A DNA stretch of 64,000 nucleotides from Candidatus Eiseniibacteriota bacterium. Lineage in GTDB: Bacteria; Eisenbacteria; RBG-16-71-46; JABDJR01. The translations under genes were made by a program, and so were the position numbers. The stretch lies in NCBI GenBank assembly GCA_963728475.1, contig CAVSKL010000003.1:393573-457572 (forward strand), in the 5' to 3' direction. This document shows, piece after piece, positions 6,802 through 45,525 of the stretch. Each line of letters begins with the position of its first letter. Position 1 is the first letter of the stretch. The notes beneath the pieces are model-generated. The model had not been told where the DNA came from. It saw only the letters and a list, made by a program, of their open reading frames with translations, and ran no database searches.

Positions 6802-8232
6802 TTAACGGGGCGATTCGGGCCCCAATTCGGCCACCGGAACCTGGAGATCCCAGGTTGGATTCGACAGGGCGGGGAGCCCGAGCACGAAGCAGGCGCCGCC
6901 GGAGGGAGCCGGCCGGTAGACCACGTCGCCCCGGTGCGCCCGCGCCACCTGGCGCAGGATGGGGAGCCCCAACCCGAACCCATGGGTCTTGGCCCGGGCC
7001 TCAGAGCCTCGGAAGAAGGGATCAAAGAGGCGGTCCACTTCCTCCGGCGCCACCCCCGGCCCATGGTCCGCCACCGTGGCCTGCACTTGGGCGCCTACCA
7101 ATTCGATGGTCACCTCCACCGCGTCGCCGCGCTGGGAGAATTTCAGAGCGTTGTCCACAAGATTGGTCATGGCGGAGGTAAGCAGGCTCGGGTGACCAAG
7201 GACAAGCACCTCGTCGGGCGCGGAGAGCCGCACGTCCTCGGCCCGGTCCGGCCGCGCGGCGACCTGCGCGCGGTGGACGTCACGCGCCACGTCGGCCAGG
7301 TTCACCGTCTCGAATTCTCCGGGGGGTCGGGCTCCCCCCTCGTTCAGGCGGCGCAGGAGGAGCAATGCATCGACGAGATCGTTCATGCGCTGGGCCTGAG
7401 CTCGGGCCGCGGCGATGCTCTCCGCCGCCGGGGTTCCGGGAGGTGTCGAGGAGCCGGCAAGCTCAAGTTCTCCAAGAAGGACGGTGAGGGGGGTGCGAAG
7501 CTCATGGGAGGCATCCGCAGCAAAGCGCCGCTCTCGTTGTCGCGCGTCGTCCAGTCCGGCCAAGAGCCGGTTGAACGCTGCGGTAAGCCGGTCTACCTCG
7601 TCGATGCCCGCGGGTTTGCCCAGGGAGCGCACCCCCGCCTCGGCGGACGCCGACCCGGCGCGACTGGTCATCTCCTCCAGCGGCCGCAACCCCCGGGTGG
7701 TGATGAGCCGCTCGGCCAGGACCACGAGAACGAGGAGAGGCAGGCCGGTCAGCACCAATGCCCGGATCAACGCGGCCATGTTTCGTCTGCGCCTCACGAC
7801 CGAGATCGACGTTTCGACCGTGAAGCCCCTGGTCGACACGTATCGCCCATAGTGTCTCGGATCTTGCCGGCCCTTGCTTGCCATGGGGGTACCGGCGGCC
7901 GAAGAGTCCACCGCGCCGGCTACCCCCGCCCCCGCGGGCCCGGTCGTTCCAAGCACTCTCCCCTGCGAATCGTAAACAGTGAGGCGGACTCCGGCGGGGG
8001 CATCCTCCTTTACCGCATCCCAGACCGCCTCCTGCGGGCTGCTCCCGCGGGAGAGGTCCTCATCGATGTCGGCGCCGACGCCGTGAGCGGTCTGTTCCAG
8101 CTCGCGCGCTTCCTCCAGCAGCAGGACGTGGCCGGTTACCAAGACCGCGGACGCAGCGAAGATCACCATGGACGCGCCGATCGCCGCCCCGTGCAGAAGC
8201 GTGAGTCGGCTGCGGAGGGAGCGCCCGGTCAC
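6802..8232 (-). CDS. Sensor histidine kinase (TM-HAMP-HisKA-HATPase_c), partner of the OmpR-type regulator
   Basis: H-box SHELRTPLTVLLGELE, with G1/G2 ATP-binding boxes downstream. Two TM segments flank a periplasmic loop. Start overlaps the RR stop by 4 nt. Confidence 0.85.
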   Translation of the reverse strand: MTGRSLRSRLTLLHGAAIGASMVIFAASAVLVTGHVLLLEEARELEQTAHGVGADIDEDLSRGSSPQEAVWDAVKEDAPAGVRLTVYDSQGRVLGTTGPAGAGVAGAVDSSAAGTPMASKGRQDPRHYGRYVSTRGFTVETSISVVRRRRNMAALIRALVLTGLPLLVLVVLAERLITTRGLRPLEEMTSRAGSASAEAGVRSLGKPAGIDEVDRLTAAFNRLLAGLDDARQRERRFAADASHELRTPLTVLLGELELAGSSTPPGTPAAESIAAARAQAQRMNDLVDALLLLRRLNEGGARPPGEFETVNLADVARDVHRAQVAARPDRAEDVRLSAPDEVLVLGHPSLLTSAMTNLVDNALKFSQRGDAVEVTIELVGAQVQATVADHGPGVAPEEVDRLFDPFFRGSEARAKTHGFGLGLPILRQVARAHRGDVVYRPAPSGGACFVLGLPALSNPTWDLQVPVAELGPESPR

Positions 8233-39310: not shown

Positions 39311-39451
39311 CCCCACTTTCAGCAACCGGGAGCGGGGGCCGGACGCGGTATACTTTCCGGACCTGAGCTGCATTGAAGGGCTTGGGCCGGTCCACCGGGG
39401 CTGAGCCCAATGCGATCGACGACCGGGGCCCCGGTCCAGCCCGAGGACACG

Positions 39452-42400
39452 ATGACACGCCGATTCCTCCCGGCCGCTGCCTTGATGCTCGCCGCCCTCG
39501 CCTTCGCCCCCGCCCGGGCCGGCGAGACCGCCAATCCGCCCATCTACATCGCCTTCCTCTGGCACATGCACCAGCCCATCTACTGGCCGTATGAATCGGT
39601 GGTCGCGACCGACGCCAACCAGCGCTACGGCTACTCGGTCACCGACATCCACAATCAGCGGCTGGGGCCGTACACCTCGTGGCCCAAGGACGCGGTCTCG
39701 GCCGGGGTCGCCGCCGGTATGCCGCACTTCGGCGCCCAGGTGAGCTTCTCGGGCTCGCTCATGGAAAACCTGAACTCCCTGGAAGCCGCCGGGAACGGCA
39801 ACTTCCAGAACTGGAAGTCGTCCTGGGATTGGATCAAGACCCAGACCACCTCGCTCGGCAATCCCCGGCTCGACATGGTGGGCTTCGGTTACCACCACCC
39901 GCTCATGGGGCTCCTGGGCACCCTCGACATCGAGCGGCAGATCGAGGCCCACCGGAGCATGATGGCCTCGAACTTCAGCGGGTCGTACTCGAAGGGCATC
40001 TTCCCGCCCGAGGACGCCTTCTCGGCCCGGATGATCCCGGCGCTGGCCGCCGAGGGGCTCCGGTGGGTGCTGGTGGACAACCTCCACTTCGACCGCGCCG
40101 CGGCGGGCTACCCGTACAACACCGGCGGGAACGTCGTGGAGCCCAACCGAGCCGACCAGCGGAATCCGGATCCGGGCGACTGGGTCCAGCTCACCGATCT
40201 CTGGGCGCCCACCAGGATCTCCGGCGGTTGGGGCCACCGGCCGCACGTTGCCGAATACGTGGATCCGGCCTCCGGCCAGGTGTCGCGGATCGTCGCCGTT
40301 CCCGCCGACCGCTACATGGGGAACGAGGACGCCCGCGGGGGGTTCGGGGCGCTCCAGTACGACGACGTGATGAGCCAGCTCGAGCCCTACAACACCGACC
40401 CCGCGCATCCGCTCCTGGTGGTGCTCCACCACGACGGGGACAACTACGGGGGCGGGACCGACAGCTACTACCACTCCAACTTCGACGCCTTCGTGAGCTG
40501 GCTCCAGGCCAGCCCCTCGCGGTTCGTGTGCACCACCGTCCAGGACTACCTGGACCGGTTCCCCCCGGACACGAGCGACGTCATCCACGTGGAGGACGGG
40601 AGCTGGAGCGGCGCCGACAACGGCGACCCCGAATTCAAGAAGTGGCTGGGCGACCCCGCCGCCGACGGCTACAGCCCCGACCGGAACAGCTGGGCGGTGG
40701 TGACCGCGGCCCGGAACATCGTGTCCACCGCGGACGAGGTGGCGCCGGGGTCGCCGGAGACCGCGCTGGCCTGGCACTACCTGCTGAACGCCGAGGCCAG
40801 CGATTACTGGTACTGGGACGGGTCTCAGGGGGGCGTCTGGGATTCGCATCCGACGCGCGCGTCCAATCTGGCGGTGCCGCACGCGTTGAACGCGATCGGG
40901 AGCGGCGCCGACCTCACCGGGCCCACCATCTTTCTCCCCCAGCGCGAGCCCTACAACCCGGGCGGCACCGAGTGGGGGATCGCCCAGCCCCGCGACTTCC
41001 AGGTCTGGACGTTCGCGTTCGACCTTGACGGGTTGTCGTCGGTCAGCCTGAAGATCCGCGGGGACCGGGACGGGGCGCTTCCGGCCGGGTCGTCGGACAA
41101 CGATACCTATCTTGGGGGCCCCGCGGTGACCGCGTGGACCTCGATCCCCATGACCGCGAGCGACATGGCGTCGCGGACCGATCCATTGCCGCTCTATCGC
41201 GCTTCGCAGTACGCGGCCACCGTCACCGGTGTCACCGACTCGCTCCTGGATTACTACGTGGAGGCGGTGGACGGGCACGGGAACGTGTCGAGTTCGCCCA
41301 TCCGCCATGTGTGGGTGGGAACCGGCACCAGCGGCGGGGGAGGGGGGAGCGCCGGGGTGAGCTGGACGCCGCCGTCGCCGGCGGCCGAGGACTCGGTCAC
41401 CCTCACCGTGGCCGGCGCCGGGAAGGGCGGCAAGCTCCACTGGGGGGTGAACGGGTGGGGCGCTCCGGCGACGGGCTACCAGCCGGCGGGGACGGTGCCG
41501 TATAGCGGTGGTTCGGCAGTGGAGACGCCGATGGCACTCTCCGGGGGCGACCTCGCGCTCACCCTGGGGCCGTTCGACGATCCCGCCCAGCCGGTGCGAA
41601 CGCTCGACTTCGTCATCCACTACGACGACGACACCTGGGACAACAACGGGGGACAGGACTACCACGTGACGGTCACCGGCGCCGCCGCGGCGAAGACGTT
41701 CACCGTGGACGGCGCGCTCGACGCGTCGGCGGTCAAGGTGGCGTCGGCGGGCGGGGTGGACCTGTACCTGGACTACAACGGGAGCGATCTCTACGTGGCC
41801 ACTCAGGCTGCGGGAGGGAGCCAGAGCGACGCCTTCGTGTTCGTGACCGGCCCGCCCCCCGGGGCGATGGCCGCTTCGCCGTGGGCCAAGGCCGGCCAGG
41901 TGGCGGGGTGGTCCTTGTTCCTGGGGAACGAGAGCGGGAACAACTGGTGCGGCTGGACCGGCCAGGCCGGAACGGTGGCGCAGGCCGCCGGAACGTACCT
42001 AGAGGGGACGGTGAACCTGTCCTCGGAGTTTGGCTCGGTGCCGCCGGTGGTCTACGTGGCGGTCGGTCGCTACCAGACCGCCGACGGGGGGGCGCTGGTT
42101 GCGCAGGCCCCCGCGGGGAACGGAAACGGCGACCTCGAGGCCTCGGAGTACTACGCCTACGACCTCAGCGCCACTGGGGTGCCGGATGGAGCGGTCCTGG
42201 ACCCGGGTCCGCTTCTGCGGAGCTATCCCAACCCGTTTCGCGGAGCGGCCACGGTGTCGTTCCGGCTTTCGACGCGGGGCGCGGTGCGGTTGTCGATGTA
42301 CGACCTGAGCGGGCGGCTGGTGCGCGTCTTGGCCGCGCGTGAGTTCGACGGGGGGGAGCACCGGGTCGCCGTCGACGGTGCGGGCCTGGCCGGCGGGATC

Positions 42401-42463
42401 TACTTCGTGGAGCTTCGCGCGCCCGGCGTCCGCGCGTCGCAGCGGCTGGTGCTGTTGCGGTAG
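39452..42463 (+). CDS. Secreted glycoside hydrolase family 57 enzyme (alpha-amylase / alpha-glucan-acting) with middle beta-sandwich/CBM-like domains and a T9SS (Por) C-terminal sorting domain
   Basis: GH57 signature IAFLWHMHQPIYW. Signal peptide MTRRFLPAAALMLAALAFAPARA. C-terminal ~80 aa (LLRSYPNPFRGAATVSFRL...GGIYFVELRAPG...) match the T9SS CTD consensus. GAGGA RBS. Confidence 0.8.
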   Translation: MTRRFLPAAALMLAALAFAPARAGETANPPIYIAFLWHMHQPIYWPYESVVATDANQRYGYSVTDIHNQRLGPYTSWPKDAVSAGVAAGMPHFGAQVSFSGSLMENLNSLEAAGNGNFQNWKSSWDWIKTQTTSLGNPRLDMVGFGYHHPLMGLLGTLDIERQIEAHRSMMASNFSGSYSKGIFPPEDAFSARMIPALAAEGLRWVLVDNLHFDRAAAGYPYNTGGNVVEPNRADQRNPDPGDWVQLTDLWAPTRISGGWGHRPHVAEYVDPASGQVSRIVAVPADRYMGNEDARGGFGALQYDDVMSQLEPYNTDPAHPLLVVLHHDGDNYGGGTDSYYHSNFDAFVSWLQASPSRFVCTTVQDYLDRFPPDTSDVIHVEDGSWSGADNGDPEFKKWLGDPAADGYSPDRNSWAVVTAARNIVSTADEVAPGSPETALAWHYLLNAEASDYWYWDGSQGGVWDSHPTRASNLAVPHALNAIGSGADLTGPTIFLPQREPYNPGGTEWGIAQPRDFQVWTFAFDLDGLSSVSLKIRGDRDGALPAGSSDNDTYLGGPAVTAWTSIPMTASDMASRTDPLPLYRASQYAATVTGVTDSLLDYYVEAVDGHGNVSSSPIRHVWVGTGTSGGGGGSAGVSWTPPSPAAEDSVTLTVAGAGKGGKLHWGVNGWGAPATGYQPAGTVPYSGGSAVETPMALSGGDLALTLGPFDDPAQPVRTLDFVIHYDDDTWDNNGGQDYHVTVTGAAAAKTFTVDGALDASAVKVASAGGVDLYLDYNGSDLYVATQAAGGSQSDAFVFVTGPPPGAMAASPWAKAGQVAGWSLFLGNESGNNWCGWTGQAGTVAQAAGTYLEGTVNLSSEFGSVPPVVYVAVGRYQTADGGALVAQAPAGNGNGDLEASEYYAYDLSATGVPDGAVLDPGPLLRSYPNPFRGAATVSFRLSTRGAVRLSMYDLSGRLVRVLAAREFDGGEHRVAVDGAGLAGGIYFVELRAPGVRASQRLVLLR

Positions 42464-42679: not shown

Positions 42680-44359
42680 TCAGGGTGAGCAGCCGGGGGT
42701 GGTGAAGGCGCCGATCTTCAGGGCGTCGGACAGGGCGGGGGAATCGCTCCGCACGTGGAAGTCATCGTTGGCGGGATCACAGAAGAGGGGATCGGCGAAG
42801 AGATTCGCGGACTGCCAATTAGGAAAGCAGCCGAGGGGATCATCCACATCTGAGGGAGTGTTGAACCAGAAGATGTTCTTGGTAAGTCGCACATTAGGGT
42901 TTAGCCAGAATCGACATACCACGCCGCATCCTTGACCGAGAGCGAACACGTTTTGGGTGATGGTGATTGCCTTGGGGTCAAGGGTGCTGACGAGGACTTG
43001 TCCCCCGCTGCAACTTGAGATCCCTGTCCCTATGTTGCCGACAAATGTGTTGTTGGCTATGACCCCCGACCAGCCCCGCATGGAGATCGCGCCCCCAGTA
43101 TCCGGACCTTGAGGTGTGTCTTGTCCATGGGCCTCGTTTCTCACGAACAAATTCTTCCGGATAGTGAGTGGAGGGGACTGGTAACCTTGCTGGCCCGCCT
43201 CAATCCCGCCTCCATGGTCTCCGGCGATATTCCCCCAGAACTCGCTATTGGAAATACGGGCCGTACCCGGCTCGCTCATAAAGACATAGATTGCTCCACC
43301 GTCATATTGGCATTGGTTTTCACGAGAACCAGCTGCTCGGCTTCGCCAGACAGCTTGGGGGTGAGCGAGACACCTACCGTGGCAGCCTGAACCCAGGTGG
43401 CATCAGTGATGGCGGCCTCGGCGTAGCGGACCAGGTAGGCGGCCGCTCGCCCTTCCTCCCCATCATCGCCCGGCGCCGTCCAGGACAGGGTTGCCGTGAA
43501 AGGACTGGTCGTCGCAACCGCGAGATCGGTGATGGCGGCGGGAGGGACCGTATCCGGCGGAAGAGCCACCACGGCATCGTTAAAGATAGGACCGAGTAGG
43601 CCCGCGTCGTCGACCGCTCGGACCGCGAAGTGAAGGGTTTCGCCGGGATCGAGCCCCGCGACCTGAATCGTCTCCGCAGCCCCGGCTGTCAGGGGCACTT
43701 GGGTCACCTCGAAGGGTGTCGCCGTGTCCCAGGTGGCCTCGGTGATCGCGGTAGCGGCGTAGCGAACCAAGTAAGCAGCCGCCCGCCCCAGGTTGCCGTT
43801 GTCCCCGGGCGCAGTGAACGCCAGGGTGACGGCATGGGGGGTCGGATTCTCCGTGTGGAGATCAGCAACCCGCCCCGGCGGGGTCAGGTCGCCGGTCTCG
43901 GCCTCGACGACGTTCGAGAGCCCCGACACGTTCCCCGCCTCGTCCAACGTCTCCAGCGCGAAGTAGTAGGGCACCAGCCGGGCCAGCGGGCCAACCCTCA
44001 CGGAATCCCCCGGCCGGCGGGCTGCGGAGACGGCAAACCCGTGACCACCGTGGCCGAGTCCCAACCGGTGGCAAGCGGCTGCAACGAGTAGCGAAGGTCG
44101 TAGCGGGCGGCTGGCCCTGCGAGCCGTCATCCCCCGGAGCGGTCCACGTGAGGGTGACGGTGCTGTCGGTGGCCGCGGCTACGGTTAGGTCGGTCACCGC
44201 CGCGGGTGGGGTCGCGTCCGGCGCGGCCGACTTGCCGCAGCCCGCGATCCACAGAACGCCGATCGCCAACGCGAAGCAAAGCGGAAGCGCGGCCCACGCG
44301 AAACGGCGCACCGATCGCGTTCGTGCCGTCGCAACTGTCCATCGTCGGTCCGCGGCCAT
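42680..44359 (-). pseudogene. Decayed gene for a lipoprotein with three Fn3-like repeats followed by a right-handed parallel beta-helix (pectate-lyase-fold) domain, broken by at least three frameshifts and one internal stop
   Basis: Lipobox MAADRRW...LWIAGCGK. Repeat units TLTWTAPGDDG / TLAFTAPGDNG / TLSWTAPGDDG ... AAAYLVRYA ... YYFALETLDEAGNVS are spread over three reading frames (track ORFs 43862..44512, 43276..44130, 42680..43279). The beta-helix part reads ...DGGAIYVF... The region is ~10 % lower in GC than the flanks. Confidence 0.5.
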
Positions 44360-44640
44360 CCCCACAATCCCCCCCCGCGCCTCGATCCCGCCGCCCAACC
44401 GCAGCGGGAACGGGCACCGCCGGGGCATGATACCAGCCAGGCCCGGTCGGCAACGGGGGCGCCCCCGGCCGGCCGCGCCCTGTCCGGTCTGCCGCGTACT
44501 CGGGTAGTTCATTGTTACACATCACTATACGTGGACAGGCGGCCCGGTCCCGCTGGTTCGTCCAACCGGCCACGATTCATCTCTAAACGGCCACACTCTG
44601 TGGTAGTATGGCCACATACTGTGGCCCTGGAGGCGAGCCC

Positions 44641-44979
44641 ATGACCCCGATGCTGATCGCGCTTTTCGGCAGCAAGTCCGCTGCCCAGACCCTCCTCTTC
44701 CTTCAGAACTACGGCGAGGGACACGCGCGCCGGATCGCCGCCACCTTCGGCGTCTCCCATATGGGGATCCAGCGGCAGTTGAGGCGGCTCGAAGCCGACG
44801 GCATCCTGGTCTGCCGCCTTGTCGGGAACACCCGGGTGTTCACCTGGAATCCGCGAAGCGCGACGGTCACGAACCTGCGCGCGTTTCTGGAGGCCGAATT
44901 GGATCGTTTGCCGCCCGAGGTGACGCGGGCGTACTTCCGGCAGCGACAGCGCCCGCGCCGGAGCGGCAAGGCCGGATAG
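44641..44979 (+). CDS. Small winged-helix DNA-binding protein (putative antitoxin / AbiEi-like partner of the downstream nucleotidyltransferase)
   Basis: 112 aa with wHTH core ...RRIAATFGVSHMGIQRQLRRLEADGILV.... GGAGG RBS 7 nt before the ATG. 4-nt gap to the next gene. Confidence 0.45.
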   Translation: MTPMLIALFGSKSAAQTLLFLQNYGEGHARRIAATFGVSHMGIQRQLRRLEADGILVCRLVGNTRVFTWNPRSATVTNLRAFLEAELDRLPPEVTRAYFRQRQRPRRSGKAG

Positions 44980-44982
44980 CCG

Positions 44983-45525
44983 ATGTCCATCAACCGGAAC
45001 ACCACGATCATCGAGCTGGCGGCCCGCGTCAGCCAGAGTCTCCAGGACGCGGGCATCAGGGCGACGCTCTCCGGCGGCGGTGCCGTGTGTGTGTACACCG
45101 ACAACGAGTATCAATCCAGCGATCTGGATTTCGTCACCGCGGCGTCGCGAGACCGCTTGTCCGCAGCCTTGGCGCCTCTCGGCTTCGCCCTGGCACGCGG
45201 CCGGCGCCACTTCACCCATCCGGACACCGACCTGTTCCTGGAGTTTCCGGCGGGCCCTCCCCAGTTCGGGGATCGGGTCGTGCCGCACGACGAAATCCCC
45301 GTGCTCGAAACCCGGTGGGGTCCGCTTCGCGTTATCACCCCGACCCAGTGCGTGATGGACCGGCTCGCCGCATTCTGGCACTGGAGCGATCGCCAGTCCT
45401 GGGATCAGGCCGTCCTGGTGGCGCGCCACCGGGATGTGGACTACGAATCGCTCGCCGAATACGCTCATGAAGAAGGAGCCGACCCTAGAGACATCGACCG
45501 ACTGCGCCGGAAGGCCGGCCGGTGA
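44983..45525 (+). CDS. Nucleotidyltransferase-fold protein (putative toxin of an AbiEii / type IV TA-like pair)
   Basis: NTase motifs LSGGGAVCVY and SSDLDFV (hG[GS] ... DxD). 180 aa. Immediately downstream of the small wHTH gene, inside the lower-GC island. Confidence 0.45.
   Translation: MSINRNTTIIELAARVSQSLQDAGIRATLSGGGAVCVYTDNEYQSSDLDFVTAASRDRLSAALAPLGFALARGRRHFTHPDTDLFLEFPAGPPQFGDRVVPHDEIPVLETRWGPLRVITPTQCVMDRLAAFWHWSDRQSWDQAVLVARHRDVDYESLAEYAHEEGADPRDIDRLRRKAGR

Follow-up and report, generated by a model that had tools for sequence, protein, structure and literature searches.

In this study we analyzed a stretch of 64,000 nucleotides of DNA from a Candidatus Eiseniibacteriota bacterium (assembly GCA_963728475.1, contig CAVSKL010000003.1, positions 393,573 to 457,572 of the forward strand), which is called the window in the following and to whose first letter all coordinates refer. 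It carries on the + strand a pair of adjacent genes, one for a winged helix-turn-helix (wHTH) protein and one for a nucleotidyltransferase (NTase). The wHTH gene (44641-44979) encodes 112 amino acids (aa) with a calculated isoelectric point (pI) of 11.7, and the NTase gene (44983-45525) encodes 180 aa with a pI of 5.65. Both open reading frames (ORFs) had been reported in a preliminary description of the window. They are real genes: homologue matches reach E=5e-54 for the wHTH protein and E=1e-86 for the NTase, wHTH homologues share 70-85% identity, and hundreds of NTase homologues share 60-75% identity. A GGAGG ribosome-binding site is located at 44629-44633 (+), 7 nt 5' of the wHTH ATG, and the leader (44501-44640) has a GC content of 0.586 compared to 0.698 across the whole window; both features had been described correctly. 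A longer wHTH ORF starting at the ATG at 44608 was ruled out, because the homologues are 112 aa long and begin with M-x-P-x-L. Thus, the gene starts at 44641. The TAG stop of the wHTH gene and the ATG of the NTase gene are separated by 3 nt (CCG). The 4 nt given before are the coordinate difference; the close spacing of the genes as such holds. In the window both ORFs share one frame. In most homologues the two genes overlap in different frames, and a read-through wHTH-NTase fusion was consequently rejected.

The NTase-fold motifs hGGG...DxD, which had also been noted before, are found in the NTase as LSGGGAV and S-x-D-L-D-F. The complete catalytic motif GGG-x-...-Y-x-S45-x-D47-L-D49 is encoded by codons 31-49 (45073..45129, +), and 14 residues lie between the GG of L29-S-G31-G32 and D47 of D47-L-D49. 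Residue conservation was determined for 102 sequences, namely the window protein and 101 diverse family members with 30-50% identity to it. G31 is conserved in 100, G32 in 98, D47 in 99 and D49 in 101 of these sequences, and position 45 is occupied by Ser (91 sequences) or Thr (10 sequences). The presumed third metal-binding carboxylate, E87 (45241..45243, +), is a Glu in 77 and an Asp in 17 of the 102 proteins. The first helix of the C-terminal bundle carries the sequence D-R-L-A-A-F-W-H-W (codons 126-134, 45358..45384, +), of which D126 and R127 constitute the sole two invariant columns of a 97-sequence alignment. Further conserved residues are Y38, Y43, G67-F68, H79, L128, D136 and Q142-A143. 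Because the catalytic residues are conserved, the NTase looks catalytically competent as judged from its sequence. The R127-x5-H133 spacing would also fit a HEPN-like C-terminal domain. This candidate was discarded, as H133 is present in only 60 of the 102 sequences and no HEPN model was matched.

The fold of the NTase was predicted with AlphaFold2. The model (mean pLDDT 94.4, pTM 0.89) is two-lobed: its N-terminal lobe is a pol-beta-type alpha/beta NTase domain, and its C-terminal lobe is a four-helix bundle. A Foldseek search of the PDB with this model returned ANT(2'')-Ia, a fungal NTase-like protein, MenT1/MenAT1, LnuA, TM1012, JHP933 and MenT3/TglT. At the sequence level the NTase reached no Pfam or NCBIfam model, its only PADLOC match was at chance level (REase_II, E 0.035), and searches of PDB sequences with the single sequence and with a profile gave no meaningful match. 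The nearest sequence families are DUF2204 (PF09970) and DUF6036 (PF19502), both without known function. The window protein stays below both thresholds, with 12.1 bits against a cut-off of 20.3 for DUF2204, and a distant family member (P0389) just reaches DUF6036 with 23.7 bits compared to the required 23.6. Weak Pfam matches were obtained across 27 family members: DUF2204 was matched by 21 of them, each time below threshold and at the N-terminal motif, ANT(2'') by six, NTP_transf_5 by three and AbiEii by one. In the searched literature DUF6036 is not mentioned, and the sole match for DUF2204 is unrelated.

The wHTH protein produced only sub-threshold Pfam matches to GntR, MarR and ArsR models. 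Its AlphaFold2 model (pLDDT 84) shows an ArsR/SmtB-like winged helix with three helices, a fourth recognition helix and a beta hairpin, followed by a C-terminal helix pair and a disordered tail. Its Foldseek matches are SmtB, AntR, HlyU, CadC, SqrR and MarR proteins; AbiEi is not among them. Neither a ligand-binding domain nor a conserved Cys/His metal site was found in the wHTH protein. The family is strongly basic with a median pI of 11.25 and a median net charge of +9. Conservation is highest in its C-terminal tail YFRQRQRPRRxGK, and the extended motif [YF][YF]RxRxRPRRxGKPL is kept down to homologues with 33-50% identity. In the window this Arg-rich tail comprises codons 98-112 (44932..44976, +) with the sequence YFRQRQRPRRSGKAG and is predicted to be disordered.

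Upstream of the ribosome-binding site an operator-like array was detected at 44568..44626. It consists of three GGCCAC-containing units which start 21 nt apart at 44568, 44589 and 44610. The second and third units contain the complete palindromes CCACA-CTC-TGTGG (44589-44603) and GGCCACA-TAC-TGTGGCC (44610-44626). Between both palindromes lies the A/T-rich hexamer TAGTAT (44604..44609, +), which may serve as a -10 element or be contacted in its minor groove by the basic tail, and most loci possess an equivalent (A/T)ATAT spacer at this place. Two or three units with a 21-nt period occur in nearly every homologous locus, and their sequences are clade-specific. Pairs of perfect palindromes with 5-nt arms at a distance of 19-23 nt were observed in 22 of 75 loci versus 2.2% of shuffles, and at least one perfect palindrome in 69 of the 75 loci versus 51% of shuffles. 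In AT-rich genomes (loci L067 and L078) a TTGACA-N17-TAAAAT promoter overlaps the palindromes; the sigma-70 promoter scan revealed no consensus promoter in the window itself.

Comparison across loci showed that the operator half-site varies in step with the beginning of the wHTH recognition helix. The recognition helix SHMAIQRQL is accompanied by the half-site GGCCACA, xTAIKRQL by (A/G)ACACA, GLNMTQRQL by GACCCC, SLS(S/T)VQKQL by ACCTAT, VS(V/I)VQDQL by ACCGG, SVSVVLKQL by AGATC and NQQRVQYQM by TATAAC. Because the sequence of the palindromes covaries with the recognition helix, the wHTH protein is most likely an autorepressor, which is predicted to bind to its own promoter. Matches to Rfam RNA elements were all sub-threshold. 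Folding of the region 3' of the NTase gene was no better than that of shuffled sequences (z=0.12), which gives no indication of a terminator hairpin. On the + strand the terminator scan gave no site, and its two matches on the - strand are no more than shuffles yield.

Conservation of the gene pair was investigated in a pattern-limited scan of a one-genome-per-species collection of 185,579 species genomes, which recovered 147 relatives. A wHTH homologue is located directly upstream of the NTase gene in 78 of 80 genome loci, and the remaining two NTase genes lie at a contig end. The partner is therefore present in all 78 assessable loci, which come from more than 10 phyla. The identities of the wHTH protein and of the NTase to the window copies correlate with r=0.88. 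The commonest junction between both genes is an overlap of 4 nt (18 loci); further overlaps are -1, -8, -11, -13 and -32, and the +3 spacing of the window is a minority state. An exhaustive profile search with the NTase in a library of 1.84 billion representatives yielded 1,817 representatives of clusters at 50% identity with E<=1e-3, of which 787 reach E<=1e-10. The matches listed are mostly about 180 aa long, and the shorter ones cover only part of the profile. Public annotations of the homologues read 'hypothetical protein', 'MarR/ArsR family' or carry generic names.

These data bear on the alternative, already raised in the preliminary description, that the second gene encodes a housekeeping NTase of repair or RNA maturation which happens to lie beside an unrelated regulator. 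The NTase offers to this idea a generic pol-beta fold only. The pairing holds at every assessable locus in the midst of unrelated flanking genes, the scan recovered only the 147 relatives mentioned above, and the pair is found on plasmids. Conserved pairing and patchy distribution thus refute this explanation, which we regard as practically ruled out.

The hosts include Gammaproteobacteria, Ca. Eisenbacteria, Acidimicrobiia, Acidobacteriota (Vicinamibacterales), Cyanobacteria (Cyanobium, Synechococcus, Pseudanabaena), Bdellovibrionota, Myxococcota (Myxococcales), Fermentibacteria, Coriobacteriia and Spirochaetales. The distribution is patchy, and identities of 60-75% are found across phyla. 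The flanking genes are unrelated between loci: capsule genes were found at L001, a reverse transcriptase gene at L006, and metH/metF, integrase fragments and a DUF4011 helicase gene at L003. No synteny was detected between the flanks of the window pair and those of other loci, except for one identical Logan contig. When 130 flanking ORFs of 42 loci were scanned with Pfam, no partner recurred, and no family was seen in more than three of them. The pair was found on 17 plasmids of Leptospira, Bdellovibrio, Sulfurospirillum and Sulfurimonas; on L. interrogans pLiSL32 (L098) both genes are intact and lie beside parB. The patchy spread, the unrelated flanks and the plasmid carriage show that the pair is mobile. 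Taken with the predicted autoregulation, it is highly probable that the pair forms a horizontally mobile, autoregulated two-gene operon. In GenBank phages no match to the pair was obtained by tblastn, and a Foldseek search of viral structures returned nothing nearer than generic NTases. One PHROG family of unknown function exists for each protein, and the pair occurs on one IMG/VR contig.

Some of the individual loci showed further peculiarities. On a 2.4-Mb metagenomic contig (L091:6659-7549) the pair is situated within a flagellar cluster, between the gene of a FliA-type sigma factor and flgB/flgC-like rod genes. The contigs L092 and L093 have the left flank and the pair in common. Only one of these otherwise identical contigs contains an integrase/AlpA/HNH island about 240 nt 3' of the NTase stop (downstream of position 7546), and therefore the 3' side of the pair may be an integration hotspot in these two contigs. 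On a plasmid of Sulfurimonas paralvinellae (L099:1079-3528) the pair closely follows three genes, namely a reverse-transcriptase-like one, one of the gamma-glutamylcyclotransferase family and a DUF2130 gene. This stretch may constitute a small defence-like cluster. In a metagenome-assembled genome of Cyanobium (L033:4561-5481, -) a canonical 307-aa AbiEii (PF08843, E 7.5e-40) adjoins the wHTH-NTase pair. Thus, two NTase modules lie side by side at this locus.

The pair has the generic layout of a toxin-antitoxin system: it consists of two translationally coupled genes, is mobile, patchily distributed and plasmid-borne. NTase toxins, represented by AbiEii and MenT, are a recently understood class which blocks translation by extending tRNA 3' ends. 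AbiE systems resemble the pair in several respects. They are bicistronic, the gene of the wHTH protein precedes that of the NTase, commonly with a 4-nt overlap, and they are mobile and patchy; for the wHTH protein of the pair a negative autoregulation via inverted repeats in the promoter, like that of AbiEi, is predicted. The NTase of both has the signature hG[G/S]-x~15-DhD with Ser or Thr at position -2 relative to the first Asp. The overlap of abiEi and abiEii by 4 nt has been reported (PMC3985639), as have the DUF1814 motifs hG[G/S]-x15-DhD (motifs I and II), KLxAaxxR with the catalytic Lys (motif III) and +DxxD (motif IV) (PMC3985639). The Ser/Thr sites known from this class are T39 of MenT1 (with D41/D43), S78 of MenT3 (with D80/D82) and T65 of AbiEii (with D67/D69) (PMC10435456, bioRxiv 10.64898/2026.01.19.700257). 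These residues are not needed for toxicity and are the site of antitoxin-induced auto-phosphorylation (PMC10435456, PMC11375011, bioRxiv 10.64898/2026.01.19.700257). S45 of the window NTase occupies the same position as these three residues.

MenAT1 of M. tuberculosis (MenA1/MenT1, Rv0078B/Rv0078A) resembles the pair in its minimal NTase of about 185-195 aa, which also comprises an alpha/beta domain and a four-helix bundle (PMC10435456), in the T/S-x-D-x-D loop and in the small partner that is encoded upstream. The MenT1 chain 8an5_B was matched by Foldseek with a TM-score of 0.57 and a probability of 1.00. In contrast to the wHTH protein, MenA1 is a peptide of 68 aa without a DNA-binding domain. 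MenT1 differs also from the window NTase as a DUF1814 member with the catalytic Lys137, and both enzymes share approximately 16% identity in the structural alignment.

Other two-gene modules containing an NTase are MNT-HEPN and PDC-M05, a PADLOC candidate system of an NTase and a HEPN protein (PMC12988326). In contrast to PDC-M05, no HEPN gene lies beside the window pair, and the window NTase matches no PDC-M05 model. The wHTH protein matches the PDC-M05A model at positions 9-86 (E 3e-7). This match is restricted to the first 86 of the 201 model positions and therefore reflects a shared wHTH and not membership in this system. In a 2009 survey of toxin-antitoxin-like pairs ArsR was found paired only with COG3832 (PMC2701414).

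The regulator-first gene order, the translational coupling, the self-specific operator, the patchy and plasmid-borne spread and the intact catalytic site all argue for a toxin-antitoxin-type reading. The wHTH-NTase pair represents an uncharacterized family of at least 1,800 clusters, which on these grounds is most likely a toxin-antitoxin-type module. Whether the full toxin/antitoxin mechanism also works like that of AbiE or MenAT is a narrower claim, to which we give an even chance. For repression, toxicity, target and neutralization we infer the following scheme. The ArsR/SmtB-like wHTH protein would bind as a dimer to the tandem palindromes overlapping its own promoter and repress the operon, as suggested by the covariation of operator and recognition helix. 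The translationally coupled second gene provides a minimal NTase of the pol-beta superfamily with the two-lobed shape and the [S/T]-x-D-x-D loop of the MenT/AbiEii type. By analogy to these toxins the free NTase would transfer nucleotides to a cellular target and arrest growth; the target of MenT is the tRNA 3' end. The wHTH protein may keep the NTase inactive by direct binding via its C-terminal helices or its Arg-rich tail. Alternatively, it may provoke auto-phosphorylation of Ser45, as MenA1 does with MenT1, MenA3 with MenT3 and AbiEi with AbiEii.

Several observations weigh against this interpretation. All Foldseek matches of the NTase model in the PDB have TM-scores of 0.45-0.58 and identities of 10-16%, and the best E-values were obtained with ANT(2'')-Ia, a small-molecule NTase. 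The NTase family is acidic, with a median pI of 5.06 and a median net charge of -8, whereas MenT1 possesses an electropositive tRNA-binding cavity (PMC10435456). The NTase family has no conserved Lys at any position which could correspond to the catalytic Lys of MenT and AbiEii. The family sequence D126-R127-L-A-A-[YF]-x-H-W resembles the register of motif III with an invariant Arg in place of the Lys; R127 may be the equivalent of this Lys by its register, not by alignment. Motif IV (+DxxD) is absent, and the corresponding region reads N-D136-R-Q-S-[LW]-[ED]-Q-A. The NTase family profile (97 sequences) was compared by hhalign with a profile of 25 AbiEii sequences built from the 307-aa AbiEii of L033. 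The resulting alignment covers only residues 29-70 with an E-value of 0.0095 and a probability of 4.3%. No alignment was obtained for the C-terminal halves, and a significant sequence relationship to DUF1814 is lacking outside the pol-beta core. In favour of the interpretation, the alignment pairs S45/D47/D49 with S44/D46/D48 of the genuine AbiEii. According to Pfam and PADLOC the 130 flanking ORFs of the 42 loci show no enrichment of defence genes; PADLOC detected isolated defence genes only, namely one AbiEii, one reverse transcriptase and two PD-DExK proteins. The setting in phage-defence islands for which the preliminary description had proposed a survey was thus seen neither in the window nor among these flanking ORFs.

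The indirect signs of toxicity conflict. In L029 (3331-3765) the wHTH gene is intact and the NTase has been inactivated because about 35 residues, among them the E87 strand, are deleted in frame. In L030 (6001-6538) the wHTH gene is likewise intact and the NTase gene is frameshifted after residue 132. This pattern of decay counts in favour of the toxin-antitoxin interpretation. Plasmids of Leptospira noguchii (L088:3640-4507) present the opposite case, to be counted against a toxic NTase, with a frameshifted wHTH gene beside an apparently intact NTase gene. This frameshift falls after the wing/helix-5 region and before the conserved RRRPRxKGKP tail, and all catalytic motifs of the NTase are kept. 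The frameshifted allele is identical on about ten plasmids.

The same comparison allows a judgement on whether the pair is a bona fide, merely shortened member of AbiE (AbiEi/AbiEii, COG5340/DUF1814). A Microbulbifer homologue bears the automatic UniProt name 'Nucleotidyl transferase AbiEii toxin', and motifs I and II, the Ser at position -2, the gene order and the overlap are in common. However, the window NTase has no Pfam PF08843 match at E<=1 and no PADLOC AbiEii match, the AbiEii match of the single one of the 27 members has an E-value of 0.08, and the wHTH protein matches no Pfam or PADLOC AbiEi family. The genuine AbiEii of L033 reaches 7.5e-40 and 2.1e-108 on the same Pfam and PADLOC models, respectively. 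With its 180 aa the acidic window NTase is also much shorter than AbiEii proteins of about 300 aa. The wHTH protein with its 112 aa and its ArsR/SmtB-like fold is without the C-terminal antitoxicity domain of AbiEi and has the Arg-rich tail instead. Together with the low hhalign probability and the missing catalytic Lys and motif IV, this makes membership in AbiE highly improbable. The pair had been described before as an AbiE-like, shorter and undescribed variant. As a description of its architecture this is fair, because a conserved, mobile and coupled pair with an operator-like promoter and with the fold and active-site signature of AbiEii/MenT was found; the profile comparisons do not sustain that it belongs to the AbiE family.

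According to the main alternative explanation, the pair is a resistance or detoxification cassette built around a regulated small-molecule NTase. In this case the NTase would adenylylate a cationic compound, for example an aminoglycoside or a lincosamide-like compound, and the wHTH protein would be a mere repressor. Besides the top rank of ANT(2'')-Ia in the Foldseek search, LnuA was also matched. The PDB chains of these enzymes are 174-185 aa (ANT(2'')-Ia) and 158 aa (LnuA) long, so that the window NTase is near ANT(2'')-Ia in size, and it shares with these enzymes the acidic character. The ANT(2'') model (PF10706, Aminoglyc_resit) was weakly matched by the six family members over the first approximately 65 positions with a best E-value of 9.2e-5. 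Mobile pairs of a regulator and an enzyme can be resistance modules, as has been argued (PMC2701414), and the intact NTase gene tolerated beside the frameshifted wHTH gene on the L. noguchii plasmids fits this explanation as well. However, the structural matches to ANT(2'')-Ia and LnuA have TM-scores of about 0.5 at 13-16% identity, and the window protein has no PF10706 match. To our knowledge, neither ANT(2'')-Ia nor LnuA has an obligate overlapping wHTH partner. A regulator of 112 aa without a ligand-binding domain or a conserved Cys/His metal site is also not expected from such a cassette. The clade-by-clade diversification of operator and recognition helix is typical of self-specific toxin-antitoxin regulators, the conserved Ser/Thr at position -2 of the DxD is a feature of MenT/AbiEii, and no integron- or transposon-type resistance setting occurs among the inspected loci. 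We therefore consider a resistance or detoxification cassette unlikely.

The opposite extreme charges of the two proteins, with a net charge of -8 for the NTase and +9 for the wHTH protein, and the disordered tail motif, invariant down to 33% identity, would suit a non-toxic regulatory switch. Here the target of the NTase would be the wHTH protein or its complex with DNA; the NTase might, for instance, nucleotidylylate or sequester the basic tail, and the pair would serve as an autonomous nucleotide or stress sensor. Precedent for NTase chemistry on the partner protein exists in the HEPN/MNT type VII systems, and the frameshifted wHTH gene of L. noguchii is compatible with such a switch. On the other hand, position 108, the sole Ser/Thr position of the tail, varies between S, T, A, P, N, G and Q, which makes it an unlikely nucleotidylylation site. 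Tyr98 of the tail is replaced by F, C, H or L in some members. No output gene is conserved besides the pair, so the switch would regulate nothing else, and the mobility pattern suits selfish or addiction modules better. For these reasons a purely regulatory switch appears improbable. In a further reading the tail [YF][YF]RxRxRPRRxGKPL would bind in turn to the A/T-rich operator spacer and to the active-site cleft of the NTase, or would be a substrate in the latter. The pair would then stand for a large and so far undescribed class of its own rather than for a miniature AbiE. The acidic mini-NTase and the basic repressor would control each other, either as a nucleotide-driven switch or as a toxin-antitoxin system with a neutralization and a target different from those of MenT/AbiEii. 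This we regard as quite unlikely, and the toxin-antitoxin-type module remains the preferred interpretation.

The neighborhood of the pair in the window is ordinary and comprises the genes of a GH57 enzyme, a broken fn3/beta-helix surface protein, a membrane protein, a NUDIX hydrolase and a carboxylesterase. The GH57-family glycoside hydrolase (39410-42463, +) is a secreted protein of 1017 aa. It carries an Ig-like domain together with a C-terminal sorting domain for type IX secretion, which points to a host lineage akin to the FCB group or to Eisenbacteria. The broken surface-protein gene (42680-44512, -) is split across three reading frames. The ORF 43862..44512 (-) encodes a signal peptide/lipobox (LWIAGC) and the first part of an fn3 domain, the ORF 43276..44130 (-) encodes fn3 sequence, and the ORF 42680..43279 (-) encodes a beta-helix/DUF5123/Disaggr_assoc region. 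The last of these has a GC content of 0.58 and a GC content at third codon positions (GC3) of 0.675 compared to about 0.9 in neighboring genes. The gene is probably a decayed one of foreign origin, or its breakage reflects assembly frameshifts. The earlier statement that the pair adjoins a decayed, horizontally acquired gene therefore holds for the breakage over three frames and for the low GC content in part of the gene; the assembly frameshifts offer another explanation. Between the broken gene and the AT-richer leader of the pair the region 44131-44500 is very GC-rich (0.746); the 5' end of the broken gene probably extends into it. Imperfect inverted repeats associated with this GC-rich region are located at 44402-44415 and 44542-44555. 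The pair itself has a GC content of 0.665-0.67 and a GC3 of 0.81-0.87, slightly under the values of the neighbors, and no tRNA, integrase or defence gene adjoins it in the window. The case for a genomic island at this site, in which the pair had been placed before, is thus weak.

No Pfam, NCBIfam or PADLOC model covers the NTase family, and it is not mentioned in the searched literature. The family is widespread and experimentally tractable, and its logic of a regulator plus an NTase is a familiar one. It keeps the catalytic core and the regulatory Ser/Thr of the NTase toxins, its enzyme is acidic and far smaller than theirs, and the partner protein is of another type. If the NTase is not toxic, the pair would be a widespread, mobile and regulated enzyme with an unknown substrate. 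If it is toxic, the pair would extend the MenAT/AbiE paradigm to a minimal and easily studied system, would allow to test whether control by auto-phosphorylation is general, and would supply a missing model for toxin-antitoxin and defence annotation pipelines.

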